A stretch of 64,000 nt of DNA from the NCBI GenBank assembly GCA_047967505.1, contig CM106538.1. One strand, given 5' to 3'. The stretch comes from Dipteris shenzhenensis. Taxonomy: Eukaryota. The notes below the pieces were generated by a model, which made no database searches, was not told the origin of the DNA, and saw only the letters and a list, made by a program, of their open reading frames with translations. Every line of letters starts with the position of its first letter. Position 1 is the stretch's first letter. The translations under genes and the position numbers were made by a program. Below, piece after piece: positions 21,801 through 54,399 of the stretch.

Positions 21801-22119
21801 GTTATGTTGAACCAGGAAAGGAGATAAGGTTTGCCATCTCAAGAAAAGTCTCTACGGCTGAAAGCAAGCACCGAAATGTTGGTACAGCAGAATTGACAAG
21901 TATTGTGCTGATCTGGGATACATGAAGTCCAATGCAGATCATACTCTCTACTACAAAGTTCAAGGGGAAGACATTACCATTGCACTTTTGTACGTAGATG
22001 ATCTGATTGTGATAGGAAGCAAGGATAGCTTCATCAGAAAATTAAATCAAGACTTATCTACAGAGTTTGACATGAAAGATCTTGGACTTATGCACTATTG
22101 TCTTGGAATTGAGTTCTAG
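18858..22119 (+). pseudogene. Copia A gag-pol pseudogene, copy 1
   Basis: Start MSTSNLNLEASAKLDNSHY; zinc knuckle CSYCHKFGHYERDC; protease WYSDSGGSTHM; GAG-pre-integrase WHKRYGH..CEAC; integrase MRSDRGSEY..AERKN; RT YKARLVAKGF and LYVDDL. Multiple stops and frameshifts. Confidence 0.93.
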
Positions 22120-22570
22120 AGAGGTTCTTTGAGAATTAATTCATGATGGTGGTGGCTCTCATTAGCCACGTTTGTCGTGGGTAAGATTCCACCCGGTTGG
22201 CAGTCAATTACCAGCCACCGAAGTGCCACCACATGGCATCTTCTTCATGATTACTAGCCCCCCGTCTGGGGTGGCGCCTAATATTCCACCGCAATGGCCT
22301 GCAATTAAGATGGATGGAACCCTAGCAAGCTCCAGCCACCACAGTGGCTCAAAATTTATAATATATATAAGATCTGTGGCATTTGGCATTTTACTATGTT
22401 GCTCTGATCCCGCCCATGCTCTACTACTTTGCTCCACACACTCTGCTACTTTGCTCCACACCCCTCCTCTAGATCTTTTCTGCCCCTGCTCTACTTTGCT
22501 CCATGCTCCCTCCTCTAACTCTCATCACTCATCTACTCCCCTACTCACCCACTCATCTTCAACATGCCTA

Positions 22571-23053
22571 CTACCACCCCCCTTCGATGCTCTGTGATCC
22601 CAATGTTATCTGCCTTCTCATATAAGGTGATTGTGTTGCACTCACCTGGAGTAGAAATGCTAGCACTAGTGGAGACCCTTCGTTCCCACAGTCGATTCCC
22701 CACACATCTACATGTTGAACCACCTTAGATGACATGCTCATAGAGGGCCTCTTTATCGATGTGCTGTATGGGTTCCCCCTAGATGTCGACGAAGGCCTTA
22801 GTATTTTCAGAGCAAAGTACTCTAGACTTGTTGGGGGGGCCGTAATCCGAGTCCTGGCAATGTGCATGGTCTTTGGCCTCTCCATCGTATCCTCCTTTGG
22901 CTCCCTAAAACAAGCTAAACTGGTGAAAAACTGAGTCGTACAAATTCCCTCTTGCTTAGATGAGGCTCTCAGTAATGGCTGGATGTAATCTTTTGGGTTC
23001 TCAATGATCTTTTGGCTCACTGGATGTAATGTTGTGGCCTCTAAGGCATTCAT
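22571..23053 (-). other. Uncharacterised ~150-170-codon ORF in the sequence joined to the truncated copia A (copies 49773-50231 and 63230-63736)
   Basis: Open in all three copies, although the C-termini differ by frameshift. Ser/Thr/Pro-rich, no recognisable domain. Confidence 0.25.
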
Positions 23054-23471
23054 GTAATCTCTTTTTGTTCAATTTGAGGCTCTCAGTATGCACCGTTGTT
23101 AACTTTTATATTTTGAATGGTTATGGCTGCTACCTGTAATCTTTTGGCCTTTAAGGCTCTCAGCAATTGCCGAGTTTTTATAAATGTAAGATCCTCCATT
23201 CAATTTTTACTCAGTATAAGTTGATAGTTTTTATATAACCTGTTATTGGATGTAGATGTACATTGTAATCTCTTTTGCTTAATTTTCACTCGAGAAATTG
23301 TACTTTTGCCCTCATTTATATTTATTGCAATAAGGACTAAAATACCAAGAAAGATGGACTACAATTTCCTTGGTTTATGACCAAAATAGTGCTAAAATAA
23401 CTCCAACGATCCCACCATTGTGGTTGCATGGAGATACATCTAGAAAAATACAATTAAACTTTCAAAAATTG

Positions 23472-23625
23472 CAATTGAGGATATGGCCCTTGAGGGGTCC
23501 TCTCTAGGGGCAAGGGCCATATCGACGTGCATTATACAATATCCAAGATGCCACTGGACAGAAATGGCATATCGATACGACCCTTGCCCCTAGAGGAGAC
23601 CCCTCAAGGGCCATATCGTCAATTG
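23472..23625. repeat. 154-bp double hairpin (inverted repeat whose arms are themselves palindromes)
   Basis: Arms 23472-23525 and 23572-23625 are imperfect reverse complements. Each arm reads gatatggcccttg...caagggccatatc (the right arm has 2 mismatches). Confidence 0.9.
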
Positions 23626-25497
23626 GATTTTGCTTTGTTGCACAATAGATTACATTTTCCTTGGTACACATACTAATAACTCAAAGAACTAGCGCAGTGG
23701 CTTTCATAGATCTCCTTCTGTTTGCCAGTGCGCTGGTCGTCATAGACTTCCTCCTGTAATACGTAAAAATAGGTAACTTAGCTATAACGCTAAGAACCAG
23801 CACGGTGGTCTTTGCAAGACAACCTTGAATTCTGAGCGATGATAGGCCATTAGAGGCCAGAGATTGCACTGAGGCAATGCTCAGAATGATAGATTGCGTC
23901 TCATTATTATGCCAAAAACCAGCGCGGTGGTCTCTCTAGGCCAACCTATGATTTGCATGGTCTGCGGGCAAAGATGCAACAAAAGGTTGCACGATGACAG
24001 GTGGTCGGCTTGTGTGCTGTGGCGGTGTTCAGAATGATAGATTGCATCTAATTATTATGCCAAGACCTAGCACGATGAACTCTCTAAGACAACCTTCAAT
24101 TTTAATGATCCATATGGGTGTGGTGCCTAGTGACAGGTGGCAAAGCTACAGCAAAAGGTTGTGCGATGATAAGTGATTAGGTGGCATAGGCCAGAGACTG
24201 CGCTGTGCGCAGTAGTGCAGAGATGCCATGTGTCGAGCTATGCAGTGTTCAAAACAAATACATTGTGTCTCAGTATTACGCTAGTGCACCTTCATGACAT
24301 CGAAAAAATTTTTGAGGAGAGCACGGGTCCGCACAAAATTCAAATATTCACCCAGGAGCGCATTACGTCGCGGCCCCAAAATGGCCTCGAAAATACTTCC
24401 ACAATTGACTACACCCAAGCAAACGTTAACCCTATTGCATTCACTTCTTGCACTCTTTACGAGTCTATTTATTCCAGCATCAATCCTACATTAAAGGAAA
24501 GAAATTAGCACATTGAGCTTGTGAGCTCAAAAGCAGCTTGTTACATCCACAAGAAGAAGAATTGTCAGATCCATGAGTAAAGTCTCTTGATACACACTGG
24601 GTAAGCCTTTGACATAGAGCCACAAACATTCTCCAGCATGGACCAATTCTATTTCTCATTCTTATTTAAGTGGTGATATTCCATTCATGATTCCAAATGA
24701 AATCCACGAATCGGAAGAACAAAACTAGCAAAAAATTGTATTGCTCGCTATACAAGCATTGACTTAGTTTGAATTGCCATACTCATGTTGCAATAGCTCC
24801 CTTGGCTAGCAATCACGAATTCCTCTTGATTTTGGCATGAATTGAATTCTTACAAAATACACAATGAGATCAGATTATGTGCCATGGGAGATATTCGATT
24901 TATGTTTCAAACATAGATTTACAATAACTACAAAATTTAAGCATTGAACTCATTCGAAATAACAAATCCTCATGTTGAAACCCAATGCATTACTTCTTTT
25001 TTCCTACTCCATGAGGGCAAATGCATAAAGGGAAGCTAGTTAAAAGATATTGGGAGACATGTCTATAGCAATAGAGATGTTTTTCACTAATTTGGCTAAG
25101 GCAAATGCATAAAGTTCCTTGATGGGATAGAGCTTGTGGAAAGGGAAAGCGAGTTGGATCCCCTTTTCTTGACTAATTCCACCATAGAATGGTGTTTTTT
25201 CAAACTTTTTATAATGGGAGCCATTTTCCATTGATTTGGCCGACCAAGTGCGTAAACATCCTCAAGTCCATCAGAGTATCCTCAAGTGGGTATTCATCAT
25301 CAAGTCCATCAGAGTATCCATAAGGATGTCTAAGTTTATGTTCTTGAGATTGTGGTATGACCAAATGAGCATTAGATCAGTCTTGCTTGATTGATTCCAC
25401 CATAAACTCTATGATTCATACTTTCTATACTATGTTGGGATCCATTTCTCATTTGTTTGCTTAGGTAGAAATGGACTCAAGTTAGGCAAGATGTATG

Positions 25498-28400
25498 TGT
25501 TGAGATATTGAGCTCCACTCGCGATATGTCAGGGTGACCATTGTGCATTTATGTCACCGACTTGTTAGCTACAGATGCGGTTGGTACACTGCCCACGAAT
25601 AATAGCTGGATGACAGCTATCCTTATCTACACTAGTTCGTGGCTCAGTTAGTATGCCACCTTAGTTAGTTGAGTTTGGTTTGAGACCCACATATAGGGTT
25701 CTTCTATTTCTTTATACTAGAGTTCTTTTGGCTTTCACAACTAAGAAGAGGAAAACTATTTTCAGCCTCCACCTTTGTGTGTATTCCCCCATTGTGCTTG
25801 TGAGAAAGCCTCAAGTGAGACTGCTTCCCTCTCTCCCACTATCTTCACATGGTATCAGAGCCTTGTTCGTGGTAAGGAGCTCAAGAAAGCAAACCAAGTT
25901 CGCGGTGTCCTGGTAAGAGGACCAGTGTTGCTTTCCTATTTCGAGTTTAGGAGCAAATCTCTGCAGGTAGCATAGCCAGAAGTGCAAGAGTGCACTGTCT
26001 CAGATTGAGACGCCCTTCGCGGTGTGGCGAGAGCACAGTTCTGATTTGAGGCCATTTCGGGGCCCGTTTTGAAGGCGGAAGTTCTTCGCAGGCACTTAGA
26101 AAAAGGCCCTATTTTTGCTATGCGACCACTGCTCTGCTGGTCAGTGAGAAGTTACCAGATAAATTGCATCGTATGCCTATGCACAGAGATATTGGGAGTT
26201 GCAGAATCATCCTTATTGCCTGTTGATGCAAAATCGTCACTAGGAAGTGATTGTGTGGTCAAAAACCACTTTCGTTAGTTTTGTAGATTTGCCCTTGTGA
26301 GGCAGAACCTGTGTTTTTTTGCAGTGACAGAATATTTTGCAGTGTTCTGTAATGGCGTCTGATTATCTTTCACAGATTGTCACTGAAAAGCTTGACAAGA
26401 ACAACTTCCAAGCATGGAAGTTTAGAATGATGAATTTCCTTATGGGAAAAGGCTACTGGGAGTTCATTACAGGAAATGAAGAAGAACCAGTTCTTCCTAA
26501 TGTTCCCAATCAACAGGAAATGCAGGCATTTAAAGGATGGCATGAGAGAGCCAGAAAAGTTATGTACTGGCTGTCTATCAGTATTTCAGATTCAATGATT
26601 GTGCATATTCAGGATGCAAGTACGCCAAAGGTGGCATGGGATACTTTGGCTAAAATGTACAGCACAAATACGCAGGCCAGGAAAATGTAGCTCAAGCAGG
26701 AGCTGCACAATGTGCAGAGAGAAAATATGAGCATCAATGACTACCACATGAAGGTGAAGAAAATTGCGGATGCACTTGCTTCCATTGGGTCGCCAGTGGA
26801 TGATGACGATTTAGTTTCTATGACCTTGAATGGTCTAGGAAAGGATTATGCACAGTTCCAGACATCCATTGCCATCCGTGAAAAATTTCTTGATTTTGAG
26901 GAGTTGATTGCTCTTCTAATTTCTGAAGAGCAGAGAAATGGTGGTGCATCTTCTTCAGAAGGAACTTCAAAAGAAACTATCTTCTACTCAAATGTTAGAA
27001 GAGGTAGAGGTAGAGGTAGAGGAGGCCGATCTGCAGGCTGTGGTAGAAATCAGAATATGCAGCAAACTCAAGAAAACCAGTCCTATGCAGGAGGATGTGG
27101 TAACTCTAGAGGCAGGGGGAGCCAAAGAGGTCGTGGTGGATGGTAGAGAGGCCAAAATGCAAACAGTAATGTTGAATGCTACTACTATGGTAAAATGGGG
27201 CATATGGCTAAAAACTGCTATAAAAAGCAGAATGACATTATGAATGGAAAATTGCAGCAAGGCAATCATGCATCCTCTAGTAGATAGGGTGATGACAGAA
27301 ATGAGCATTTGTTTATGGTGCAACATATGACAAATTCTGTGACAAGTGTAGAAGAAAGCAATGATGTGTGGTATGTTGATTCAGGTGCGTCAAACCACAT
27401 GTGACAGGTCATGCTGAATGGATGCAGGATGCATGGAAAATGGAAAAACCAGCATTTGTGGAGACTGGTGATGATACTGCACATCCTATTGTGCAGATTG
27501 GAAAAATTCCTTTGTCTATGCAGGATGGGAAAAAGAAATACTTGTCTGATGTATTTCATGTCCCGAACATCACCAAGAACCTGGTTTCTATTGGTCAAAT
27601 GGTTGAGCAGGGCTTGTAGGTCAGATTCAATCCTCATGGATGCTTTGTTGAGGATATGAAAAATAATGGTCGCTTGATAGCAAAAGGAAAGAAGAACGGC
27701 AGGATGTTTACGCTGGATGCGGACATGCCTGAATTGAGTGCAGCAATGTTTGCACATGGGACTGGTGTAGTTGCAGATATTGATATCTGGCATAAACGCA
27801 TTGGTCATGTTAATGTACATCGACTTAAATCAATGCAGGCCCAAAATATTGTTGTAGGATTGCCTAAATTCAAGGTTGCAGAAATGCACAAGGTTTGTGA
27901 AGCCTGTCAATTTGGGAAACAGGCAAGGAAACCTTTTCCTAAGCATGTTCAAGAGAGTTAAAAGCCATTGGAATTAATCCACTCTGATGTGTGGACTACT
28001 AAAGCTGCATCTATTGGAGGCTGTCACTATTTTGTCACCTTTATTGATGACTTCAGCAGAAAACTTTGGGTGTATTTTATGAAAAAGAAAAGTGAAGTGT
28101 TTGGGCACTTCAAAGCTTTTAAAGCTATGGTTAAAAAAGAAACAGGCCTGCAAATAAAATGCCTAAGGTTAGATGGAGGGGGAGAGTACCTCTCAAATGA
28201 GTTTGCAAGGTTCCTGCAGGAGCATGGCATAAAGCAGCAATATTCATGTAGTCATACCCCACAGCAAATCGGAATTGCAGAAAGGAAAAAGAGGCATATT
28301 GGAGAGGTATCTCGGGCCATGCTAAATAAAAAAGATCTACCAGATTATTATTGGGCTGAAGTAGTTGCTACAACAGTTTATATAATGAACAGGACTCCCA

Positions 28401-31029
28401 CTGCAGCAATACATGGCATGACGCCAGAGGAGATGTATACTGGTAGGAAACCAGACATTTCTCATTTGAAAATTTTTGGTTGCATTGCCTATGTTCATGT
28501 GCCAGATGAGTTGAGGTCCAAGTTGGATCCAAAGGCTGAGAAGTGCATCTTTATCGGTTATTCTCTGCAGCAGAAAGGGTATATATGCTATAACCCTTCT
28601 ACATGTAAGTTCACAGTGAGCAGAGATGTTGTTTTTTATGAGATGAGCAGCTGGTATAAACTAGTAAATGTGATGATTGATGTAGATGCACAAAATGGTA
28701 ATGCTGCACAAAATGCACAGCAGCAATCACAAAATATCAGTGGACCTGCAGTGTCCTCTAGCAATGGTTCGCATACTTCGCCATGGACAGGTAGATTGAG
28801 ATCAGGAGAATCTCCTCAAAGCAATGCAGATAGTGGTATGCAAGTATCACGAAAAGAAAAAGAGAAGGTAGATCAGCCCATGTTTGATGTGAATGCAGGT
28901 CACTCTTATGTGGATGGTGAATCCAGTGGCTCAGAGCAGAGCATTGATGATGAGTTGGGTATTCCTTCTGTTGTTACACCTGGAGTAAGGAAGACCAGGG
29001 ATGTTTTGAGAGCACCTAGAAGTGAGCTTCTTTTGCGCAGGTCTACCAGGGTTAGGTATCCTATGGATAGGCTGAAATATGATGGATTTACAGCCATTCA
29101 CTATGCCTATATGGTCAAAGTGATACAGGAACTAGAACCTATTTCTTTTGAGCAAGCCATGGGAAAAGAAAAATGGGAGAAAGCCATGGATGAAGAAATG
29201 GATGCCTTGGATGCAAATGCAACATGGGAATTGGTGCCTTTGCCTAAAGACAAGAATGCAATTGGCTGTAAATGGGTTTATAAGGTGAAGCATAATGCAG
29301 ATGGTTCTGTGAACAGATACAAGGCAAGATTAGTTGTCAAGGGGTATGCACAGTCATATGGCATTGATTATGAAGAAACATTCAGCCCAGTTGCAAGGAT
29401 TGCGATTGTAAGAGCAAACATTGCTATGGCTGCATCAAAGGGATGGTCTTTACATCAAATGGATGTAAAGAATGCCTTCTTGCATGGTGATTTGCAAGAA
29501 GAGGTCTATATGGAGCAGCCACCAGGTTATGCGCACGCTGTTCATCCTGAGTTTGTTTGTAGGTTGAAGAAAGCCTTGTATGGCTTGAAGCAAGCACCTA
29601 GAGCATGGTCTAACAAGATAGGACAGTATCTTGTTACTATTGGCTTTCAGATTTCCAAGGCAGATTTCTCACTCTATGTGATAAAAACAGAGAAAGGTAT
29701 TATGCTGCTTGTCATTTATGTTGATGATTTGATCATCACAGGTGATAGTGATGAAGACATCCTTCATGTGAAAATGCTATTGAAGCAGAAGTTTGAGATG
29801 AAGGATTTGGGAGAGCTGCGTTATTTCTTGGGCATTGAGGTGATTAGATCACCAAGTGGGATACAGCTCTTGCAGAGGCAGTATGGACTGGACATGCTGT
29901 CCAAATATGGGATGACAGGCTGTAAGCATATTTCAGTTCCTTTGGAGCAGAATGTGAAGCTGAGCGCAGATGCAGGTGAGCTTCTGGAAGACCCTACTAT
30001 GTACAGACGCATAGTAGGAAGTTTGATTTACATGACTATTACCAGGCCAGATTTGAGATATGCTGTTGGGTTGGTAAGTCAGTTTATGCAGGCTCCAAGG
30101 AAACCGCATCTGGATGCAGCTAGACGCATACTCAGGTATGTGAAGTCCACATTGCAGTATGGACTATTTTATGAGGCTGGGGTTCAGATACAGTTGCATG
30201 GATACACTGATGCTGATTGGGCTGGTAGTATTTCTGATAGACGATCTACCAGTGGATATGTGTTCTCTTTTAGTAGTGTTGCAGTCACTTGGAGCAGCAA
30301 GAAATAGCCTACAGTTGCCTTGTCGAGCACAGAGGCTGAGTACAGGGGTGCAGCAATGGCTGCATGTGAGGTAGCTTGGTTGCATAAGCTACTCTATGAT
30401 ATGCATCAATCTACAGATGGGCCAGTTGTCATTTATTGTGACAACATGAGCAGTATACACTTGGCAAATAACCCAGTCTATCATGCTAGAACAAAGCACA
30501 TTGAGGTGCATTATCACTATGTGCGGGAGAAGGTTTTACTAGGTCTTATTGATCTAGTTTATGTCAGCACAGAGGATCAGATAGCTGACATATTCACAAG
30601 GCATTGGAAGCAAAGAAGCTACACAAGTTCAGAGACCTGCTTGGTGTGCAGGAATTGGGATTGAGCTCGAGGGGGAGTGTTGAGATATCGAGCTCCACTC
30701 GCGATATGCCAGGGTGACTGTTGTGCATTTATGTCACCGACTTGTTAGCTACAGATGCGGTTGGTACACCACCCACGAATAATAGCTGGATGATAGCTAT
30801 CCTTATCTACACTAGTTCGTGGCTCAGTTAGTATGCCACCTTAGTTAGTTGAGTTTGGTTTGAGACCCACATATAGGGTTCTTTTATTTCTTTGTACTAG
30901 AGTTCTTTTGGCTTTCACAACTAAGAAGAGGAAAACTGTTTTCAGCCTCCACCTTTGTGTGTATTCCCCCATTGTGCTTGTGAGAAAGCCTCAAGTGAGA
31001 CTCCTTCCCTCTCTCCCACTATCTTCACA
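25498..31029 (+). mobile_element. Full-length Ty1/copia LTR retrotransposon family B, copy B1 (defective)
   Basis: 352-bp LTRs at 25498-25849 and 30678-31029 (TG...CA); 5-bp TSD gtatg at 25493-25497 and 31030-31034; PBS tggtatcagagcc at 25850-25862; PPT gagggggag at 30669-30677. About 11 LTR mismatches counted by eye. Confidence 0.98.
26352..30664 (+). pseudogene. Copia B1 gag-pol pseudogene
   Basis: KLDKNNFQAWKFRM (gag), WYVDSGASNHM (protease), WHKRIGH..CEAC, LIHSDVW..DGGGEY (integrase), YVDDL (RT), YTDADWAG..DRRSTSG (RNase H). Several in-frame TAG stops and frameshifts. Confidence 0.96.
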
Positions 31030-31605: not shown

Positions 31606-32370
31606 AACCAAAATGGAAGGGGGACACTTGGCAAGAAAGTGTGTGGGACACTTTTTAACAAAAGTGTAACTATAGCATTGCCTTGAAGGCAGTGCTAACA
31701 AACAACCAATTTTCACACTTTTTATACCAAGTGATTCATTCTTTAATGATTTGGCCAACTAGAAGGGTAAATGGCCTTGAACAAGGAAATGAGTGGCAAG
31801 ACATCATAACTGATGCTGAGCCATATTTCATTGATTTGGAAAAACCAAGTCTATTGAGGGACTAGACCAATGAAATAAGTTTTTAAGGTCCTCCTTCTTG
31901 ATGGGTTTGATGTTGTAGAAAGGCAACATTATCATTATATTCCCCTTCTCCATCATTGATTTAATTTTTTCACCATAAATTACATTTTTCCACACTTTCT
32001 ATAGCACATGACCCATTTCATGGAACATTACCCCATGCTATCAAAAGAAACTATGTGTGATTACGTATGACTGAATGTTTATTAAGCAATGGGTTTATGA
32101 TTTATTCAAATTTCACATGTTGAGTTAAAGAGTTGCTAACAAGGGTTATATTCATGTGCACTTCTAGTCATACACCTGTAGCCCTAGTTATAACATAAGG
32201 TATTAGAGCACAAAGGATATTGTGCCTATGTTTGTATTCTAACTCTTCTATTGAGTTGTAGACGATGCTGGGAGATAGGTGGCCAAGATGGCATGAGAAG
32301 AAGCAAACTTTTTTTCTTCTCCCATATTGTGGGAAGTGGTTGGCATCAATGGGGTTAGAGGATTTGTAAC

Positions 32371-34592
32371 TGTTGGGATATCTCAAGGTGTATGCCTCAG
32401 GCACACCTTATGTTTCTATGTGTGAGTGCTAGAGGCACAGTTAGGTGCCCACAAGCACAGTTAGGTGGTGGAAAGCCACATAGGATGATTGAGAGAATCT
32501 AGGAGCAGATTGAGGAGATGATTGTGGAGCTCTGAAGTCATCAATGATGTCAGTGAGCATGTATGAGGTGCCTACTTAAGGACCTCACTCTTCTTCATTC
32601 TAAAAGCAAGTAATGCAAGTATTCTGAGTTTGTGTCCACTCTTTCCTTTCCTTTCAGCTTTCCAACATGGTATCAGAGCCATTTGATCCTCCTTGAGCCC
32701 ATTTCTACCACATCATCTTCTTCTTCTTCTTCTTCTTCTTCACCATCTCTCCCTCTTCTCCCAAAAATTTGCTTGAGCTTGTTCTCCTCCAATCCTCAAC
32801 CATTTCCCACGCCCTTTCTGCTAGAGATCCCTCTTATTAGGGCAAATTTCGGGCTGCAAGCAATTGGAGAATAACCCACTCTGCTGGTAGTCATTGCATG
32901 AACTTCATCGAACCTTCTTCCTGCAAGTTCTCTGCACCTGCTCTGTCTTTGTCTAATTCCTTTCAGGGCAAGCTTCTCCATACCTAGAGCTACCTTGTGC
33001 TGAAATCTGAGTAGCAATGGCTGCATATTGAAGGAGAAAACAGAGAAAAACCAGTCGACTTTGTTCAAGAAGGTGAAGGCAACCTGACGCATATTTTCGC
33101 CTCTTCTTCCAAGAGGATCTACTATGGTATACCAGCTTTCTTTTGCCTTAGAAAGCCCCCTTTCTTTTGCTTTGAAGAGTGTGATATGAGCCCTCTAAGT
33201 TCAGCTCTCTCTAGTTTTGAAAGTTTTGACATACTTTTGAAAATGATGCTACATAAAATGCTACTCTAGCATTTCTGGTCTTTTGAAGTTTTTAATAACT
33301 TCACTACAAGTGTTGCTTCAGTTTTGTTTTGACTTGCTAGACCTGGTTGTGATTGGAAAGTGTTTATTTCATTCACTTCTATGAAGCATGCAAAAAGTAG
33401 CATCATTGTTTGAAAACTAGTCACTACTATTTGCTACATCAAGTGCCTATACTTTGGAAGTATTTCAGTTCTTTTTGCCTTGTAAGAGAGAAGACACTGC
33501 CCAATACCTGGGTTAGACCCTCTCATGGCTTGCTTATGCAAAATATGTGAAAAGCCAAAACATAAAGCAATGTCTTGTTATGCTACAAAGGATGAAAATG
33601 TCAACCTAACTTCCTTGTTGAAGATTGCCAAAAAGGAAGCAACTACAAAGCTAGAGATCTACCCTCTCATGGCACTTTTATTTGACTCCAAGTACAAGAA
33701 AAAGATGAAGGTCAGATACCTAAGATATGCTTCTCTACACAACTATGGAGATGACAAGATAATTGTTCTCTTGAAGGATATGACTTTCAGATCCACTTGT
33801 TCTATCATAGTACCATCATCTTATAAGGCACTAGACACTGCCCATGTGGTAAGACCTTGCCTTGACATGGATATTTTGCCTCCACAAGATGAGGCATCCC
33901 ATGAAGATTATGCATTTTAAATCATCTCTATGTATGCTCCAGATCTCTCTTTTTATGTCAAGGTACTCAGCCTGGATAGTCCTCCAAAATGAATGAAAAT
34001 AAACTATTGTGTTTTGTGTGTTTTGTAAACACCTCTGGTCACCTTATGATGTAGGCCATGTGTATGTTTTGTTCCATGGTACCTCCTACAGACATTGTGT
34101 GCATGTACATGTAGGGGAGATAACCATTGGAAGGTCTGTTTGTATCCCTTTCTGTTTACCTTACACCCAAGGGAACCCTTGCTAGCATGAGAACCTAGCC
34201 ATAGATTAATCCTTGACCACCATGAGATGGCATGAGAAACTATGAGACTAGATGTATCCTTGACATAGCCTGAGGCATTTCCTTGAGGGGGGGTTTGTTG
34301 GGATATCTCAAGGTGTATGCCTCAGGCACACCTTATGTTTCTATGTGTGAGTGCTAGAGGCACAGTTAGGTGCCCACAAGCACACTTAGGTGGTGGAAAG
34401 CCACATAGGATGATTGAGAGAATCTAGGAGCAGATTGAGGAGATGATTGTGGAGCTCTGAAGTCATCAATGATGTCAGTGAGCATGTATGAGGTGCCTAC
34501 TTAAGGACCTCACTCTTCTTCATTCTAAAAGCAAGTAATGCAAGTATTCTGAGTTTGTGTCCACTCTTTCCTTTCCTTTCAGCTTTCCAACA
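32371..34592 (+). mobile_element. Non-autonomous LTR retroelement C (TRIM/LARD-like, 2222 bp), very young
   Basis: 297-bp LTRs at 32371-32667 and 34296-34592 with one visible mismatch; TSD gtaac at 32366-32370 and 34593-34597; PBS at 32668-32680; PPT gaggggggg at 34285-34293. Empty sites at 274-278 and 53055-53059. No PR/INT/RT motifs inside. Confidence 0.97.
33525..33920 (+). CDS. 131-aa protein with N-terminal CCHC zinc knuckle (CX2CX4HX4C) inside element C
   Basis: ATG-initiated uninterrupted sense ORF MACL-CKICEKPKHKAMSC-Y..., with a basic middle region. It is the longest ORF in the internal region. Confidence 0.55.
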   Translation: MACLCKICEKPKHKAMSCYATKDENVNLTSLLKIAKKEATTKLEIYPLMALLFDSKYKKKMKVRYLRYASLHNYGDDKIIVLLKDMTFRSTCSIIVPSSYKALDTAHVVRPCLDMDILPPQDEASHEDYAF

Positions 34593-36566
34593 GTAACTTG
34601 GGTCTTCTAGGAGAAGTTTATTCTCTTCCTACTTTCCCCTCGCTCTCCTATTTGCCCATTTGATTTATGGGTAGCCTTTCCAAGGGACACTTGAGTAAGA
34701 AGACCCTTCGATCCTTTGATTTTGACTTTGACCTGGATGGAGGTAGATGATTTTTCTCAACTTCAACCATTGTGTATTGCATATGGCCATAGAGCCTTGC
34801 TTTGATCAAATTGTCATGTCTAGTGAAGACCCCCACATCTTTTGTGGCTTTGTACATTGCATCAAGCCACAAGCCTCAAGTCGCCTCAAGTAGCATAACT
34901 ACTTGCTCCATAATGTTCCTGCCTATAGTTCTAGGCTGTACCGCCCTTTTCAAGTCATAAGCCTTGATGATTAGAAGGTTATCTCTATTTTCTATAGCTT
35001 TGTCTTTCCCTTGTCGTGAGTAACATGCATCATAGCTTCTTCATTCCACAAAGCCATGTGCAAATACATTTGCGAAAGACACAATTCTAAGATCTACTCC
35101 TTAGTGAGTGAATCTATTTTATTTTTTCCCATTCGAGATGGATTACTCCATGTCCTTAAATGCTGGATCAGAATGGTTTTAAATGCATAAGTTCCATCAA
35201 GACTGCACTTTTTATAAGCTCATGTAGTTTTGGCAAAAGTAACGACCTCCATCCTTAAAGCATGAGTGCAATGTCTTCATAGAAAGGACAAATGGAGCAT
35301 AGAAACAACAAAGTCTTCATCAGAAGACCAAAATTCATAAGCCTTAGATAACATGGAGCATATATGATCACACAATTCCATTTGATTTGATTTTGGATAG
35401 GTCATTTGAACCTACTCAAGAATAGCATCAATTTTGATTCAAATTACTACTTAGATTGGGACATGAGCTCATCTATAATAGTGAGTTGAACCTGAAACAT
35501 GTTGTGGAGGTAGCTCTATTGGGTCATTTTTTCCTTGGGTGTAGCCTTTTTTGGTGAGGTTCATGGACTTTTCTGTATATAGGTATCTTGCATGACCCAT
35601 AACTTATGCTTTGCTCAACGGAATTCAGCAAACTTTGTCTTCAAGTTGTAATACACATTCCAAACTTGAACATGAAAGGAAAAAATTATGTAATAAGAAT
35701 TTGGAACAAGACCGTAAAAGAATTACAAGTGCTATGTTTCTTGTGAAGCATGCATCCTGAAGACTATAGGATATAACAATTTATTCAAAAACATCAAAAT
35801 TTTATTCTATAGATACATGCAACCAAGTAATCATTCAAAAGTACACTACGTGAGCTTCTCCTCAACCCAAGGATGCACCTAAATGAGATCATTATGGATG
35901 GGTTAATGGGGCCTCCAATGTTGTGCTAAAGTGATGCATACCCATTTGGGGGCATGCTCCATAACTTTTTTTTGATTTGTTGAAAACCAAAACGGATTGA
36001 AAACTTGGAATCCAAACTATTAGGACAAGTGCATGGTGGTCTTAAAACGTTGATAGTTGATAGTATTGGTATCTAGATTCACCCTAAAATGGAAGAAGTT
36101 GGAAAGTGCAATTTGTGCATGTGAAAATATATTTTAATAAATCCGACACTATTTACAATTTTGAATTGTTTCTTTTTCCATGCACTTACTTGCTATATGG
36201 CTCATAAGCATGCCAAAGGTCATTGCATTTAATAATACACAACATCAAACCCGATCATGTGCCCTTTGGCCTATTTGTGTTTTGAAGCATTTTAGGGCAC
36301 ATTGCACTTGTTTGGGATATCCAAGTCTGCTGACGTGTATCACCGGAGGGGGAAAAACCAATGGCTTAAGTTTTGCTACCCCCGTGAATTTTGAATTTTC
36401 ACACCTCCCACCCATCAAATCTTGGAAGATTAAGTACCTGCAACCTGCCCCTGCCCTACAAATGCCCTACAACCCACATGCACCTCAACATGACCTTGCA
36501 AAGACTTTGGTTTGCCATTGTCTTCTTTCGGGTAAGTTGTCTTCTAATCTTTGATTGCCTTACCAG

Positions 36567-36824
36567 ATAGCTTCTCCAAGTCTAATCAAGAATGTGGATC
36601 TTACCTTTACTAAAAGGCCAAAAGTGATTTGTCAATGCAGAGTACAATATAGTTCAGAGCGCAAGAAAAGGAGAGGCAGCCTAAGTGCAGAAGTCATTGC
36701 TACAGTGATGACGTTTTGGCATGAAAATACGAGAGTTTCTCCAAATAGAAAGGAGATCTGTAAGAAGCAGACGGGATGCAAGGTCTTTGAGGAGCACATC
36801 ATACACATGCTAAATATAACGCAG
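36567..36824 (+). pseudogene. Transposase-like exon remnant, copy 2
   Basis: Near-identical to 2220-2477 (ORF 36555..36839). Confidence 0.5.
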
Positions 36825-37757
36825 GTTAGTGGTGCCTAAACTAGCCCGGTGGTTGTTTGTGATTCAGCTTTGGGATAGCTTACTTGTTTCATTTCTTAAA
36901 CTAGGCTTGGACTAAATGTGATTGTCCTAAACCAGCCTAGTGGTTGGAACATCATGCAACCGTAGGCTGGTTCAACTCACTTGCTAGCTATGTGATTGTC
37001 CTGAACCAGCGCATGTGGTTGAACATACATTAGTTGTTATTCAGCACGGTGGCATGGTCGAGCAAAAATTAATAGCAATATATTTCATAATATATTGTTA
37101 TTTTACTAAACCAACCCGGTGATTGGAACATCATGCAACCGTGGCTGCTTTGGCTCAATCAACAGTTATGTGATTGTCCTGAATGAGCATGGTTGAACAG
37201 ACATTACTTATTGACCAGCTCTCTGGTTGAAATTATTGTATTTCGTAGTACCTAAATTCATTAAATTTAATTTCCTACTATTCGGTTCATATACCACTGC
37301 TAAATTGTGAAATTCAGAAATGAAAAGCAATATATTGTTATTTTCTAATGGTGAAATTCAAAAATGAAAAGCAATATACTTGTTATTGTCTAATATGTGA
37401 AGTTGAGTCCATCAGGCTAAACCATCCCAGTGGTTGAAACTATGATAGTGTCCTAAACCATCCGTGGTTGAAATTGTGAGTGACTGCTCTCCTAAACGTG
37501 TCCTAAACCAAACCGGTGATTGAAATTGTGACTCTCCTAAACTAGCGCGGTGGTTGAAATTTGTTTTGCTTCATTATATACTTTAATTAGACACTGTGTT
37601 TTGTATTAAGTTTAGTAGTAGCAAAAAGGGGGCTCATTGTTCTGTTCTTCCTGCATGTTGGGTCAATAGACTGAATTGTATCTCAAGTTTATGGATCGGA
37701 ATCTAAACATTTCAATTGGGCAGAGGTGTTGAGAGTTCACGCTCAACATCATGTGAT

Positions 37758-39320
37758 CATGTGTGCATAACACCATCACGTGATCATATGTGCATAGCAC
37801 TAACCTTATAGAGTGCTATAAAGGAAAGGGTTAGATCCCCTAACCCTAACCCTAAAAGGGTTTGTATATATTCTATTTTTTGAACTAAATCTAGTGTACA
37901 GTTAGTCATTTGTGGTGTGCTCTCTAGATGTGCCCTCTCTCCTCATCTCCACTCTTCTCCTCTTCCCTCTTCATATTTTGTCATGGTATCGAAGCTCCCT
38001 TGCCTTTTGCTGAGGCATTGCCAATCTCGAGAGAGTGAGAGAGATTGTGAGATTGAGTGTTCTTTCACTTCCATTGAGAGATAGAGAAATTTCCGTCCAT
38101 TTGAGAGGAATTTCCATCCATGAGAGATTGAGAGATTTCTGTTAATCTCATTCCATTCTATTCATTCCTTCTTTAAGAGTTTCTATTCATTGGAGAGAGA
38201 AAGAGGGAGCGAGATTTCAATTGAGAGAGATTCACTCTGAGATATTGTGTGAAAGAGAGAGAGAGGTTTTGAGATATCTGTGAGAAAGAGTTCTTAGACT
38301 CCCTCAACGACTGCATACTTGAGGTGCATCAGCCCCTGTGTGCTCACCAAGTCTCCAAGGCTCTGACCTTGACTACATGCCTACAACAAATAAGGCTCTC
38401 TATGCATAGCCTTCTCAACGAGGGCTTATCCACGATGGCCTGCTTCTCCAAGCTTTGACCGGCCGGGCTCACGGGCTCATGGGCAATGCTTCAAAACTAC
38501 CCATGCAAGCCACCTCTCGAAAGCTTGTACAAAGCTGTGAAACATGTGTGCATAGCACCATCACGTGATCATATGTGCATAGCACTAACCTTATAGAGCG
38601 CTATGCAGGAAAGGGTTAGATCCCTTAACCCTAACCCTAAAAGGGTTTGTATATATTCTATTTTTTGAACTAAATCTAGTGTACAGTTAGTCATTTGTGG
38701 TGTGCTCTCTAGCTGTGCCCTCTCTCCTCATCTCCACTCTTCTCCTCTTCCCTCTTCATCTTTTGTCATGGTATTAGAGCTCCCTTGCCTTCCGCTGAGG
38801 CATTGCCATTCTCGAGAGAGTGAGAGAGATTGTGAGATTGAGCGTTCTTTCACTTCCATTGAGAGATAGAGAAATTTCCGTCCATTTAAGAGGAATTTCC
38901 GTCCATAAGAGATTGAGAGATTTTTGTTAGTCTCATTCCATTCTATTCATTCCTTCTTTAAGAGTTTCTATTCATTGGTGGAGAGAGAAAGAGGGAGCGA
39001 GATTTCAGTTGAGAGAGATTCACTCTGAGAGATTGTGTGAAAGAGAGAGAGGTTTTGAGATATCTGTGACAAAGAGTTCTTAGACTCCCTCAACGACTGC
39101 ATACCTGAGGCACATCAGCCCCTATGTGCTCGCCAAGTCTCCAAGGCTCTGACCTTGACTACATGCCTACAACAAATAAGGCTCTCTATGCATAGCCTTC
39201 TCAGCAAGGGCTCATCCACGACGGCCTGCTTCTCCAAGCTTTGACCCGCTGGGCTCACGGGCTCATGGGCAATGCTTCAAAACTGCCCATGCAAGCCACC
39301 TCTCCAAAGCTTCTACAAAG
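37758..39320 (+). repeat. ~785-bp tandem duplication covering the 3' part of the copia A LTR, the PBS and the leader
   Basis: catgtgtgcata(a/g)caccatcacgtg at 37758 and 38543; two PBS-like sites at 37984 and 38769. Confidence 0.92.
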
Positions 39321-41370
39321 CTTCCAACAAACAGGCCTACTTCCAACAAATGGCTCCTATATAGCAGAAGCCTCGGACGTCTCCAATCGGCAGTGCAGCT
39401 CTACATCGGCTCTCATCGACTCGACAACCTTCTACGTGGCCTTCTCTAGGCAACGCCAAGCTTCTAGCTCAGCAACTCTGTAAGCCGCGTAGTGCCTAGC
39501 TCCATATAGCCTGTATTCCTTATATCCGCTGTTACTCACTACGTCACCAGCCATCTTGTTGGTAATAATGAATCAAAGATGGTGAAGAAGAAGAGCAAGA
39601 CGATGAGCGGCATGAGTCACAATTGAAGCACAGCTCCATGGAATTGGTCTTGTAAGTTGTGCAATCTCCTGCAAGCTCAACCAACTCGACATACTTTGCC
39701 ACGGGATTCCCTTGAGCCTTGCATCGTCAATAGCCATGCTTTGGCCCAAAGTAAGGGCCCGCTCCTGGCAACACCTCTCCTGATGGCCCTTCCCGATAGC
39801 TTGCGGGATCCCATACCCTCTGATGCCATCGATACCCTACGCCAATCGAACTTTCAGCCTCTGCAATGACTAAGCAAAACTGCATCTCCAAGGCGCCATC
39901 TCCATCGTTCAGTCCATCGCCTCCGTCAACCAAGATACCTGCATCTCTTCTCTGAGAGAGAAACTGCCACATGGCAGATAAGGCCACGTGGCACTCTTCA
40001 ATCCCATCACCCACCTTAGCAAGGTAACCCAGCGTAGAGTAACCCTGGTAAAAAATGGATAAGGATGGTTAAGTGAACCCCCAGGCAAGTTAACCCAAGG
40101 CTGGGCTACTCAGCGAAGGGTGGTCAAAAATCAGCCACATGGCACTTATCCACTTGCCATGTCATCCAGTTGACATGTGGCAATCGATTGCCACATCATC
40201 AACCTTATCGTGCCACATCATCAAGGCAATCCTTATCTACCACGTCACCCCTGCCAGCTCAACAGGCCACATCAGCACAAACATGTCATCATCGACTCAA
40301 AGATTTCACTTGGCATATTGAGTGTATTTGCAATTGATTCATACAAATATCTTCACGACACTTTTGAGTACATTTCTTGCACCATGTCGACTAGCAACCT
40401 CAATCTAGAGGCATCTGCTAAGTTAGACAACTCCCATTATGATACATGGAAATACTGAATGGAGACCATTCTTGTACTTCAGGACAAATGGGAGTATGTC
40501 AATGGGTCTAACCTAGACCATTGGCCGATCCACCTACCAGTAGCTCTACTCCATCTCTTGTCATAGCACTAGCAATGGGATCTACATCTACACAAACAGT
40601 TTCCGCACTAGTAGCAGATCCTGCCATTGCCCGAGCTCAGGCAGAATGGGATAAGAAAGACAAGTATGCCTATCACTTGATCAAGCAGAATGTGCAAGAT
40701 GTAATGCTAGGACAACTCAACACAGTCAAGACATCAAAAGAAGCATGGGATATGGTCGCAGCTCTCTACGAGTCCAAGAACACATCCAGGATTCTCACCC
40801 TGAGAAACCAGATCAACCAGAGTTTCTGCAACAACAGTGAAACCGGTCATGCCTATGTACTCTGCAAAAAAATTACAACAATCAACTTGCAGCAGCAGGA
40901 GAGACTATGAACCCCGCAGAAATGGTTCAAGTCATTCTGAACAGACTAGGAGAGGGATACGAGAATGTCGTCCAGAGTATTGCCATCCAACGGCAAATTC
41001 TGATACTAGAAGAACTTTAATCAATCCTATTTGGTAAAGAACTTAGGACTCAGGCAATTCAAGCACGTAAAAGTCATTCTAATGATCAGGCATTCACAGC
41101 TTCAGACAGAAGCAGAGGCAACGGCAAAGGTAGAGGTAGATCATATCAAAAAAGTGGTCATCATTAGTAACAAAATCAAAGTCAGCATCAGCATCAACAT
41201 CATCCTCAGCAACATCAGAATCAACAAAGAGGAAATCATTCCAACCGAGGAAGATTTCAAGGATGAGGGAATGCATCCACCAACATGTCAAACATTCAGT
41301 GCAGCTACTGTCACAAGTTTGGACACTATGAAAGAGATTGCCACAAGAAGTAGTACGACCAAGGCGGTCA

Positions 41371-44300
41371 TGTGAAGATTGTGGGAGAGAGGGAAGGAGT
41401 CTCACTTGCGGCTTTCTCACATGCACAATGGGGGAATACACACGAAGGTGGAGGCTGAAAACAATTTTCCTCTTCTTAGTTGTGAAAGCCAAAAGAACTC
41501 TAGTACAAAGAAATAGAAGAACCCTATATGTGGGTCTCAAAACCAAACTCAACTAACTAAGGTGGCATACTAACTGAGCCACGAACTAGTGTAGATAAGG
41601 ATAGCTGTCATCCAGCTATTATTCGTGAGCGGTGTACCAACCGCATCTCCAGCTAACAAGTCGGTGACATAAATACACAACGGTCACCTTGGCATATCTC
41701 GCGAGTGGAGCTCGATATCTCAACACTCCCCCTCGAGCTCAATCCCAATTCCTGCACACCAAGCAGGTCTCTGAACTTGCGCAGCTTCTCTGCGCCCAAT
41801 GCTTTCGTGAAGATGTCAGCTACCTGATCCTCTGTGCTGACATAAACTAGATCAATAAGACCTAGTAAAACCTTCTCCCGCACATAGTGATAATGCACCT
41901 CAATGTGCTTTGTTTTGGCATGAAAGACTGGGTATGACAACTGGCCCATCTGTAGACTGATGCATATCATAGAGTAGCTTCTGCAACCAAGCTACCTCAC
42001 ATGCAGCCATTGTTGCACCCCTGTACTCAGTCTCTGTGCTCGACATGGCAACTGTAGGCTGTTTCTTGCTACTCCAAGTGACTGCAGCACTCCCAAAAGA
42101 GAACACATATCCACTGGTAGATCGTCTATTTGAAATGCTACCAACCCAATCAGCATCAGTGTATCCATGCAACTGTATCTGAACCCCAGCCTCATAAAAT
42201 AGTCCATACTGCAATGTGGACTTCACATACCTGAGTATGCATCTAGCCGCATCCAAATGCGGTTTCCTTGGAGCCTGCATAAACTGACTTACCAACCCAA
42301 CAGCATAGCTCAAATTTGGCCTGGTAAAAGTCATGTAAATCAAACTTCCTACTATGTGTCTGTACATAGTAGGGTCCTCCAGAAGCTCACCTGCATCTGC
42401 GCTCAACTTCACATTCTGCTCCAAAGGAACTGAAATAGGCTTACAGCCTGTCATCCCATATTTGGACAGCATGTCCAGTCCATACTGCCTCTGCAAGAGC
42501 TGTATCCCACTTGGTGATCTACTCACCTCAATGCCCAAGAAATAACGCAGCTCTCCCAAATCCTTCATCTCAAACTTCTGCCTCAGTAGCATTTTCACAT
42601 GAAGAATATCTTCATCACTATCACCTGTGATGATCAAATCATCAACATAAATGACTAGCAGCATAATCCCTTTCTCTGTTTTTCTCACATAGAGTGAGAA
42701 ATCTACCTTGGAAATCTGAAAGCCAATAGTGACAAGATACTGTCCTATCTTGTTAGACCATGCTCTAGGTGCTTGCTTCAAGCCATACAAGGCTTTCTTC
42801 AACCTGCAAACAAACTCAGGATGAATAGCATAAACATAACCTGCTGGCTGCTCCATAAAGACCTCTTCTTGCAAATCACCATGCAAGAAGGCATTCTTTA
42901 CATCCATCTGATGTAAAGACCATCCCTTTGATGCAGCCATAGCAATGGCTGCTCTTACGGTTGCCATCCTTGCAACCAGGCTGAAAGTTTCTTCATAATC
43001 AATGCCATATGTCTGTGCATACCCCTTGACAACTAATCTTGCCTTGTATCTATTCACAGAATCATCTGCATTGTGCTTGATCTTATAAACCCACTTACAA
43101 CCAATTGCATTCTTGCCTTTAGGCAAAGGCACCAATTCCCATGTAGCATTAGCATCTAAGGCATCCATTTCTTCATCCATGGCTTTCTCCCATTTTTCAT
43201 TTCCCATGGCTTGCTCAAAAGAAGTGGGTTCTGGTTCCTGTATCACTTTGACCATATAGGCATAGTGAATGGCTGTAAATCCATCATATTTCAGCCTATT
43301 CACAGGATACCTAACCCTGGTAGACCTGCGCAAAATAGGCTCACTTCCAGGTGCTCTCAAAACATCCCTGGTCTTCCTTACTCCAGGTGTAACAATAGAA
43401 GGAATACCCAACTCATCATCAATGCTCTGCTCTGAGCCACTGGATTCACCATCCACACAAGAGTGACCTGCATTCACATCAAACATGGGCTGATCTACCT
43501 TCTCTTTTCCTTTTCGTGATACCTGCATACCACTCTCTGCATTGCTTTGAGGGGATTCTCCTGATCTCAATCTGCCTGTCCACGGCGAAGTATGTGAACC
43601 ACTGGTAGAGGATACTCTAGGTCCACTGATATTTTGTGATTGCTGCTGTGCATTCTGTGCAGCATTACCATTTTGTGCATCTACGTCAATCATCACATTT
43701 ACTGGTTTATACCAGCTGCTCATCTCATCAAAAACAACATCTCTGCTCACTGTGAACTTACGTGTAGAAGGGTTATAGCATCTATACCCTTTCTGCTGCA
43801 GAGAATAACCAATAAAGACGCACTTCTCAGCGTTTGGATCCAACTTGGACCTCAACTCATCTGGCACATGGACATAGGCAATGCAACCAAAAATCTTCAG
43901 ATGAGAAATATCTGGTTTCCTACCAGTATACATCTCCTCTGGCGTCATGCCATGTATTGCTGCAGTGGGAGTCCTGTTCATTATATAGACTGTTGTAGCA
44001 ACTGCTTCAGCCCAATAATAATCTGGTAGATCTTTTTCATTTAGCATAGCCCAAGATACCTCTCCAATATGCCTATTTTTTCTTTCTGCAATTCCATTTT
44101 GCTGTGGGGTATGGCTGCATGAATATTGCTGCTTTATGCCATGCTCCTGCAAGAACCTTGCAAACTCATTTGAGAGGTACTCTCCCCCTCCATCTGACCT
44201 TAGGCATTTTATTTGCAGGCCTGTTTCTTTTTCAACTATAGCTTTGAAAGCTTTGAAGTGCCCAAACACTTCACTTTTCTTTTTCATAAAATACACCCAC

Positions 44301-50683: not shown

Positions 50684-50837
50684 CAATTGAGGATATGGCC
50701 CTTGAGGGGTCCTCTCTAGGGGCAAGGGCCATATCGACGTGCATTATACAATATCCAAGATGCCACTGGATAGAAATGGCATATCGATATGGCCCTTGCC
50801 TGTAGAGGGGACCCCTCAAGGGCCATATCGTCAATTG
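50684..50837. repeat. 154-bp double hairpin, copy 2
   Basis: Same structure as 23472-23625; here both arms have the gatatggcccttg/caagggccatatc stem intact. Confidence 0.9.
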
Positions 50838-52593: not shown

Positions 52594-54399
52594 GTTTGAT
52601 ATTGTATAAAGGCAACATGATCATTATATTCCCCTTCTCCATCATTGATTTAATTTTTTCACCATAAATTACATTTTTCCACACTTTCTATAGCACATGA
52701 CCCATTTCATGGAACATTAACCCGTGCTATCAAAAGAAAGTATGTGTGATTACATATGACTGAATGTTTATTAAGCAATGGGTTTATGATTTATTCAAAT
52801 TTCACATGTTGAGTTAAAGAGTTGCTAATAAGGGTTATATTCATGTGCACTTCTAGTCATACACCTGTAGCCCTAGTTATAACATAAGGTATTAGCGCAC
52901 AGAGGATATTGTGCCTATGTTTGTATTCTAACTCTTCTATTGAGTTGCAGACGATGCTGGGAGATAGGTGGCTGAGATGGCATGAGAAGAAGCAAACTTT
53001 TTTTCTTCTCCCACATTGTGGGAAGGGGTTGGCATCAATGGGGTTAGAGGATTTGTAACTTGGGTCTTCTAGGAGAAGTTTATTCTCTTCCTACTTTCCC
53101 CTCGCTCTCCTATTTGCCCATTTGATTTATGGGTAGCCTTTCCAAGGGACACTTGAGTAAGAAGACCCTTCGATCCTTTGATTTTGACTTTGACCTGGAT
53201 TGAGGTAGATGGTTTTTCTCAACTTCAACCATTGTGTATTGCATATGGCCATAGAGCCTTGCTTTGATCAAATTGTCATGTCTAGTGAAGACCCCCACAT
53301 CTTTTGTGGCTTTGTACATTGCATCAAGCCACAAGCCTCAAGTCGCCTCAAGTAGCATAACTACTTTTTGCTCCATAACGTTCCTGCCTATAGTTCTAGG
53401 CTGTACCGCCCTTTTCAAGTCATAAGCCTTGATGATTAGAAGGTTATCTCTATTTTCTATAGCTTTGTCTTTCCCTTGTCGTGAGTAACATGTATCATAG
53501 CTTCTTGAAAGTAAAAAATTATGTAATAAGGATTTGGAACAAGACCGTAAAAGAATTACAAGTGCTATGTTTCATGTGAAGCATGCATCCTGAAGACTAT
53601 AGGATATAACAACTCATTCAAAAACATCAAAATTTTATTCTATAGATACATGCAACCAAGTAATCATTCAAAAGTACATTATGTGAGCTTCTCCTCAACC
53701 CAAGGATGCACCTAAATGAGATCATTATGGATGGGTTAATGGGGCCTCCAATGTTGTGCTAAAGTGATGCATACCCATTTGAGGGCATGCTCCATAACTT
53801 TTTTTTTATTTGTTGAAAACCAAAACGGATTGAAAACTTGGAATCCAAACTATTGGGACAAATGCATGGTGGTCTTAAAACGTTGATAGTTGATGGTATT
53901 GGTGTCTAGATTCACCCTAAAATGGAAGAAGTTGGAAAGTGCAATTTGTGCATGTGCAAATATATTTTAATAAATCCAACACTATTTACAATTTTGAATT
54001 GTTTCTTTTTCCATGCACTTACTTGCTATATGGCTCATAAGCATGCCAAAGGTCATTGCATTTAATAATACACAACATCAAACCCGATGGTGTGCCCTTT
54101 GGCCTATTTGTGTTTTGAAGCATTTTAGGGCACATTGCACTTGTTTGGGATATCCAAGTTTGCTGACCTGTATCACTGGAGGGGGAAAAACCAACGGCTT
54201 AAATTTTGCTACCCCTATGAATTTCGAATTTTCACACCTCCCACCCATCAAATCTTGGAAGATTAAGTACCTGCAACCTGCCCCTGCCCTGCAAATGCCC
54301 TACAACCCACACGCACCTCAACATGACCTTGCATAGACTTTGGTTTGCCATTGTCTTCTTTCGGGTAAGTTGTCTTCTAATCTTTGATTGCCTTATCAG

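Follow-up and report, generated by a model that had tools for sequence, protein, structure and literature searches.

Among non-autonomous long terminal repeat (LTR) retrotransposons, terminal-repeat retrotransposons in miniature (TRIMs) are about 1 kb long or less and have no coding capacity, and large retrotransposon derivatives (LARDs) exceed 4 kb and are large and non-coding. In passages of a sugar beet study (PMC13570524), non-autonomous elements of 1.5-4 kb form a size range without a name, and domain remnants were found in 43 of 115 such families, where they were patchy among the members. The open reading frame (ORF) of TR-GAG elements, as described in passages of Chaparro et al. 2015 (PMC4350172), encodes a full Gag in which a UBN2 (PF14223) capsid domain is followed by a zinc finger, for example, in a protein of 433 amino acids with the finger at residue 275. 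The element considered here is a 2,222-bp LTR retrotransposon at positions 32371-34592 of a 64,000-nucleotide stretch of the genome of the fern Dipteris shenzhenensis (contig CM106538.1 of assembly GCA_047967505.1); this whole stretch is referred to as the window. The element has an internal region of 1,628 bp with one long sense ORF of 131 codons, and it is probably a non-autonomous LTR retrotransposon mobilised in trans, whose ORF is a relic of the gag frame. An earlier reading of the same DNA, made without database searches (the sequence-only reading), had instead proposed that this ORF encodes a nucleocapsid-like adaptor.

Insertion, age and coding content of the element

The repeat into which the element is inserted is present in three copies in the window. 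In the two other copies, the corresponding regions (53020-53094 and 239-313) were uninterrupted and read ..GGATTTGTAACTTGGGTC.., and both of these empty sites were 96.6-97.8% identical to the joined flanks of the element, with one GTAAC each. Because two uninterrupted paralogous sites carry a single GTAAC, this is a true insertion with a 5-bp target site duplication (TSD). A TSD of 5 bp is given for 93.4% of plant elements in passages of PMC6317226.

The structure of the element was found to be that of an LTR retrotransposon (Table 1). The LTRs are in direct orientation, start with TG and end with CA, and differ only at 32460 (G versus C; 296/297, 99.7% identity); a primer binding site (PBS) adjoins the 5' LTR, with a polypurine tract (PPT) adjoining the 3' LTR. 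The PBS sequence was present at six sites in the window, compared with 0.42 expected by chance, and the other sites adjoin the LTR ends of copia elements. We take this sequence, TGGTATCAGAGCC, to be of the tRNA-Met type. Passages of PMC6317226 agree with this assignment.

The copies of the host repeat were 95-96% identical to each other, versus 99.7% for the LTR pair, so the host repeats diverged before the element was inserted. The substitution rate used for LTR dating was 1.3e-8 per site per year. With this generic rate, which is not lineage-specific, one difference in 297 bp (K = 0.0034) corresponded to an age of ~0.13 Myr, with a Poisson range of ~0.003-0.7 Myr. The insertion is recent, and the repeat that received it is older.

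No gag capsid, protease, integrase, reverse transcriptase (RT) or RNase H was detectable in the internal 1,628 bp when the 131-codon ORF and the nine other six-frame ORFs of this region were compared with Pfam. The nine other ORFs gave chance-level matches only (E 0.008-0.08, far short of the cut-offs), and the other copia elements of the window readily matched PF14223, PF22936, PF00665 and PF07727 in the same type of search. The element therefore lacks the set of GAG, protease, integrase, RT and RNase H by which an autonomous Ty1/copia element is recognised. The 131-codon ORF is the only sense ORF of at least 40 codons from an ATG in the element. On the antisense strand, the leader contains a frame of 132 codons between stops (98 counted from its ATG) at 32796-33194 (-), which had no Pfam match. 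An autonomous partner was not found within the window, where the other copias have the LTR ends ..TTTTGTCA and ..CTTCACA and no nucleotide similarity to the element.

These results agreed with the structural part of the sequence-only reading. The element had been called very young, and the LTRs show one mismatch in 297 bp; near-identical LTRs and intact PBS, PPT and TSD had been described, and all of them were recovered, with the PBS at 32668, the PPT GAGGGGGGG at 34285-34293 and GTAAC on both sides. The statement that the element is non-autonomous and has no pol also held, as none of the ten internal ORFs contained a credible Pfam domain.

The whole leader, from the LTR end to the ATG of the ORF, is 857 nt long and contains nine upstream ATGs. 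Since the gag-bearing copias of the window also have ATG-rich leaders (5 ATGs in 546 nt and 21 in ~1.6 kb), these upstream ATGs are no argument against translation of the ORF. Long ATG-rich leaders are apparently usual in this genome: the longer of the two examples belongs to the copia with the PBS at 17289, in which ~1.6 kb and 21 ATGs precede the Gag N-terminal motif (17289-18894). Just 3' of the PBS of the 2.2-kb element, a (TCT)8.7 microsatellite grades into a TCTTCTCCC repeat (32716-32762), and the contigs of public runs appear to break there.

Several further features were searched for. A simple regular-expression search detected neither a TATA-like nor an AATAAA-like motif in the LTR, from which no conclusion was drawn. 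When 32300-34700 was scanned against Rfam, no RNA family was recognised, whether 5S-like, ribozyme or other; the three matches obtained were at chance level (17-20 bits versus gathering scores of 50-73). No second copy of the element and no solo LTR were found within the window by blastn.

The 131-codon ORF and its variants in the family

The ORF begins with a zinc-knuckle motif of exact CX2CX4HX4C spacing (C5-X2-C8-X4-H13-X4-C18), as the sequence-only reading had noted for an intact ORF of 131 amino acids; the motif occupies residues 5-18 of the ORF at 33525-33920. To see how often an ORF of this length and such a motif arise by chance, the 1,628-bp internal region was shuffled 3,000 times with its dinucleotide composition preserved. 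An ATG-initiated ORF of at least 131 codons was obtained in 30 of the 3,000 shuffles, and any CX2CX4HX4C motif in one. This rarity argues that the ORF and motif together are not a chance product. The basic region that had been described after the knuckle was confirmed in part: residues 19-70 are moderately basic (12 K/R versus 5 D/E), but the stretch of 61 residues at the C terminus is acidic; the protein as a whole has a pI of 8.8.

The knuckle was compared with three knuckles of the window copias (CSYCHKFGHYERDC twice and CYYCGKMGHMAKDC) and with that of one fern copia polyprotein (CYYCGKPGHMQADC). All four contain Gly-His and an aromatic residue (Y/F), whereas the ORF knuckle has Lys-His and no aromatic residue. 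The sequence CKICEKPKHKAMSC has the CX2CX4HX4C spacing of PF00098, yet the family model was not matched at E<=10; in the control, the gag of a window copia scored 28.2 bits. Relative to the copia knuckles, the ORF knuckle is thus degenerate or atypical in its sequence.

The remainder of the protein resembled nothing in the collections searched. The ORF matched no Pfam family at E<=10, zf-CCHC included, and protein word searches returned no homologue either at near length or at longer length from a collection that contains fern copia proteins. A phmmer search against 1.84 billion representatives gave no genuine homologue. Its single match (P0001, E 1.3e-4) was rejected as spurious, being a bacterial protein with a score inflated by eight tandem repeats. 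In the ESM Atlas, no usable neighbour was found, and the recognition value of 2166 was below the 2300 mark and within the range of shuffled sequences. Structure prediction, which the sequence-only reading had proposed as a check on its adaptor, did not support that proposal: AlphaFold, run on the single sequence without an alignment, gave a mean predicted local distance difference test score (pLDDT) of 39.9 and no confident fold.

Likeness between the ORF and the gag of the window copias was confined to the knuckle (z 2.7, with 9 of 300 shuffles equally good). Two candidate origins for other parts of the ORF were rejected. The part after the knuckle was not a decayed copia protease, as Smith-Waterman comparison with protease ORFs gave z values of -0.5 to 0.5. 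The tail had pairwise z values of 2.1-2.4 to a pol C-terminus reading ..VSTEDQVADIFTKAL, but a profile of 121 copia C-termini scored -0.9 bits and 1,108 of 2,000 shuffles were equally good.

To study the family, Logan contigs were taken from four public runs, each from a different study, and matched at >=80% likeness. The contig data comprised record lengths, gap totals and 30-letter ends; indel sizes were inferred from the first two, and the substitutions, indels and variants given below are those of the records listed. The runs gave 137, 132, 35 and 54 contig pieces across all likeness classes, which shows that the family has multiple, diverged copies. Word depth was far above that of the ORF segment in the LTR, these depths being derived from contigs and giving neither a ranking of parts nor a copy number. 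Contig cover was absent at the flanks (32000-32302 and 34626-35000). In metagenome contigs, a pattern from the ATG region had no match, and a pattern of the LTR end with the PBS was found at two loci (L001 and L002) with likeness limited to the 27-32 nt junction; the LTR pattern had no match in prokaryote-genome contigs or in viral contigs.

At least five contigs covered parts of the ORF, each with 1-6 substitutions in 174-431 nt relative to the window. Among those listed, the ORF-spanning contigs had gained 15 nt within 33602-33650 and lost 3 nt, and two contigs lacked a further 6 nt. As far as lengths tell, the frame was open in these spanning contigs. Little weight attaches to this openness, since the subfamily is young and its ORF-bearing copies are only ~1% different from the window.

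In contigs of the runs X3 (99 letters) and X4 (49 letters), 33537 is the last position before the sequence diverges from the window; the codon of the first knuckle Cys begins at this base. This variant, hand-translated in the frame of the ORF, reads MACL-YNLEKFNGKG and replaces the knuckle segment; the Gag N-termini of the window and fern copias read MAS..IVTEKLDKNNFQAWKF, ..TEKLDKNNFQAWKF and ..SEKLDKNNFHAWKF. Contigs matching from ~33626 onward carry other sequence before that point. Additionally, the 226 nt at 33651-33876 are swapped in X3 and X4 for 31 letters that contain no stop, a net change of -195. Substitutions placed by hand were V to A at 33601, a synonymous change at 33608 and T to I at 33784, and the three versions of the replacement segment added six nonsynonymous and two synonymous changes. 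The total of this crude hand count, 8 nonsynonymous to 3 synonymous, is close to the neutral expectation and looks neutral.

Table 1. Features of the element, its target site and its empty sites (window coordinates)
Feature	Interval	Strand	Remark
Left TSD copy, GTAAC	32366..32370	+	Flank comparison; single GTAAC at empty paralogous sites
5' LTR, 297 bp, ends TGTTGG..CCAACA	32371..32667	+	296/297 identity with 3' LTR
PBS TGGTATCAGAGCC, tRNA-Met type	32668..32680	+	Abuts 5' LTR, no gap
Remaining leader, PBS to ORF	32681..33524	+	No protein domain
(TCT)n microsatellite in leader	32716..32741	+	
131-codon orphan ORF, including stop	33525..33920	+	ATG is the probable parental gag start
CX2CX4HX4C motif CKICEKPKHKAMSC, ORF residues 5-18	33537..33578	+	Family breakpoints at 33537 and ~33626 bound the motif
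226-nt ORF segment, swapped for 31 other letters in contigs of two runs	33651..33876	+	Frame kept
PPT GAGGGGGGG	34285..34293	+	2 nt 5' of 3' LTR
3' LTR, 297 bp	34296..34592	+	
Right TSD copy, GTAAC	34593..34597	+	Flank comparison; single GTAAC at empty sites
Paralogous empty site, single GTAAC, in other copy of host repeat	53055..53059	+	
Second paralogous empty site	274..278	+	

Origin and possible roles of the ORF

The reading that we favour, and regard as probable, is that the element is a trans-mobilised non-autonomous LTR retrotransposon and that its 131-codon ORF is a relic of the gag frame. The element would retain only the cis parts for retrotransposition, namely, the TG..CA LTRs, the tRNA-Met PBS, the leader and the PPT. 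Since these signals are complete and no enzyme accompanies them, the element would depend for its copying and integration on proteins that an autonomous partner supplies. Its RNA would be transcribed from the 5' LTR, and tRNA-Met would serve as primer at the PBS; packaging, reverse transcription and integration would be left to an autonomous element outside the window, with its Gag, protease, RT/RNase H and integrase. Such a partner must have been active within roughly the last few hundred thousand years.

Because the sister variant reads, at the same ATG, like the N-terminus of a copia Gag, with LEKFNGKG a few residues after the MA- start, its sequence suggests that the ATG at 33525 is the start codon of the parental gag. 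The ORF would consist of this start codon joined to a degenerate CCHC knuckle and followed by sequence of no recognisable ancestry; the sequence comparison further suggests that the knuckle was brought beside the gag ATG by internal deletion or rearrangement. The gag of the partner, if the ORF is such a relic, would begin at the homologue of 33525 with MACLYNLEKFNGKG... The main reason why the ORF is open would be the youth of the subfamily in which it occurs; there is no sign that mobility needs it. We infer the gag origin of the ATG and the knuckle, the mobilisation in trans and the lack of function.

Going by the Gag-like variant, the element probably belongs to Ty1/copia. The element had no nucleotide or protein similarity to the window copias, and the only positive tie was the 10-residue Gag-like reading in the sister variant. 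The sequence-only reading had proposed a copia, tRNA-iMet-primed helper; the PBS is indeed of the tRNA-Met type, but it is unsafe as an argument for copia. According to passages of PMC6317226, the tRNA-Met PBS is used by most chromoviruses too, and so the PBS alone gives no basis for the copia assignment.

Several observations weigh against the relic reading. The Gag-like variant rests on a 30-letter consensus with a motif of ~5 residues; the parent element was not found, so that the deletion breakpoints and the origin of the knuckle are putative; and the tail of the ORF (residues 19-131) has no explained origin. An ORF of this length is also uncommon by chance, as the 30 of 3,000 shuffles indicate. 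Finally, the inferred length differences in the ORF (+15, -3, -6 and -195 net) were all multiples of three (4/4), whereas among the 12 indels listed outside the ORF only one was. At face value, this is unlikely under neutrality, and the in-frame length changes could mean selection for the frame. The signal is real but weak because the sizes were inferred, the runs probably sample the same few variants, and only listed indels and records were counted. The sequence-only reading had itself named a remnant of a deleted gag as the outcome contrary to its proposal. The variant with a copia-Gag-like N-terminus after codon 4 fits such a remnant; the in-frame length changes favour coding.

Alternatively, the ORF could encode a minimal nucleocapsid-like protein, composed of the putative knuckle and the basic stretch, that binds its own RNA, possibly in cis, and aids the entry of this RNA into helper particles or chaperones tRNA annealing or dimerisation. 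A parasite class encoding such an adaptor was the central proposal of the sequence-only reading, and it was not borne out. We regard it as unlikely. The exact CX2CX4HX4C spacing (1 of 3,000 shuffles) is in its favour, but the knuckle lacks Gly-His and the aromatic residue and did not match zf-CCHC at E<=10; the 52 residues after the knuckle are moderately basic (12 K/R versus 5 D/E), but the protein has no homologue in the searches and no confident fold (pLDDT 39.9). It also agrees with an adaptor that the ORF is sense-oriented and probably uses the gag ATG, that it is open in the spanning contigs, judged by lengths, and that all four inferred length changes are in frame (versus 1/12 outside, among those listed). 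However, the sister variants replace the knuckle segment or 226 nt of the ORF, the 8:3 ratio looks neutral, and a capsid-less protein would have no evident route into a helper particle.

A chance origin of both the ORF and the knuckle, as a de novo ORF in non-coding internal sequence with no gag ancestry, appears very unlikely. The orphan sequence, the low pLDDT and the ESM recognition in the shuffled range would all be expected of such an ORF, and the antisense stop-to-stop frame of 132 codons at 32796-33194 shows that long open frames occur in this element. On the other hand, the shuffles gave the knuckle once and an ATG ORF of at least 131 codons 30 times in 3,000, the motif lies in sense orientation within a retroelement, as a gag knuckle would, and the N-terminus that the sister variant has at this ATG is Gag-like.

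We give just as little credence to the possibility that the frame from the old gag ATG was kept under selection through at least four in-frame length changes and encodes a capsid-less, knuckle-first 'NC-only' protein competing for helper particles, which would make the element a 'TR-NC' semi-autonomous parasite. If the ORF were maintained and translated, a retrotransposon parasite could keep only the RNA-binding end of Gag, and such knuckle-only retention would bear on packaging competition among non-autonomous elements; the present evidence falls short of this. Truncated Gag restriction factors, such as Ty1 p22, exist, and truncated Gag inhibitors act through the capsid domain. That the ORF is a putative Gag-derived interfering peptide damping a helper element is highly improbable, for although a gag-frame fragment in a parasitic element and the in-frame length changes would suit such a peptide, the element has no capsid domain and shows no evidence of conservation.

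Surrounding repeats and comparison with described elements

The window is rich in other repeats. A composite unit, in which a 2.4-kb block precedes a copia element with its PBS at 17289, 38769 or 55829, occurs three times at ~94-96% identity. The blocks lie at 274-2660, 34593-37007 and 53055-54853, and the copia parts at 16309-24880, at 37003-41370 together with 47200-52100, and at 54849-64000. This triplication points to LTR elements arranged in tandem or segmentally. The 2.2-kb element is found in the block of the second composite unit only. A second copia family is represented by two copies in opposite orientation that are 93% identical, at 26042-30432 (+) and 41934-46303 (-), with PBSs at 25850 (+) and 46536 (-). 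The gag-pol frames of both copies are interrupted by stops, and the minus-strand copy interrupts the middle composite unit. For a copia pol C-terminus at 41701-41955 (-), the best named relatives were hypothetical proteins of Adiantum nelumboides (66-79% identity), and many unnamed proteins from metagenome and Logan contigs also matched. A satellite-like tandem array at 5885-12365 is composed of at least nine units of ~715-757 bp with 74-98% identity, together with shorter sub-repeats phased at 12 bp.

The element is a clean, well-bounded example of a recent mid-size non-autonomous LTR element in a fern genome, and the window also contains paralogous empty sites for it. It may help in annotating repeats and serve to mark recent retrotransposition activity.

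Like TRIMs and LARDs, the element is non-autonomous, would be mobilised in trans and has cis signals only. However, its 2.2 kb, of which 1.6 kb are interior, exceed the size of a TRIM and fall short of that of a LARD, and it has one long ORF. The 5S rRNA-like sequence of Cassandra TRIMs and the hammerhead ribozyme of retrozymes were not found in its LTRs in the Rfam scan.

With TR-GAG elements, as presented in passages of PMC4350172, the element shares a length below 4 kb, LTR features, a single sense ORF related to gag and the lack of pol. It differs from them in that the ORF has only 131 amino acids, contains no capsid domain (neither UBN2/PF14223 nor Retrotrans_gag, with no Pfam family at E<=10) and carries the knuckle at residues 5-18. 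The sunflower TR-RT, TR-RT-RH, TR-RH and TR-INT-RT elements likewise consist of two LTRs around one ORF that is a piece of the polyprotein; in the passages of PMC9784723 that describe them, these ORFs have recognisable domains and transcripts, whereas the element described here shows neither a recognisable domain nor evidence of expression. BARE-2 (Tanskanen et al. 2007, as cited in passages of PMC4350172 and PMC13570524) also depends on a partner for a missing Gag function, but it keeps pol and lacks functional Gag only, whereas the present element has neither pol nor capsid. Full-text literature searches on this question and the passages of the papers cited here turned up no category of knuckle-only elements, which is no proof of absence in print.

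The mid-size non-autonomous LTR elements of sugar beet, in the passages of PMC13570524 that deal with them, resemble the element in their intact LTRs, PBS and PPT, their incomplete coding sequence and their length of 1.5-4 kb. The remnant in the fern element, whose host is not an angiosperm, is below detection by domain models and comprises only a start codon and a knuckle-like motif. Nevertheless, the patchy occurrence of remnants in the sugar beet families matches the mosaic ORF seen in the family studied here.

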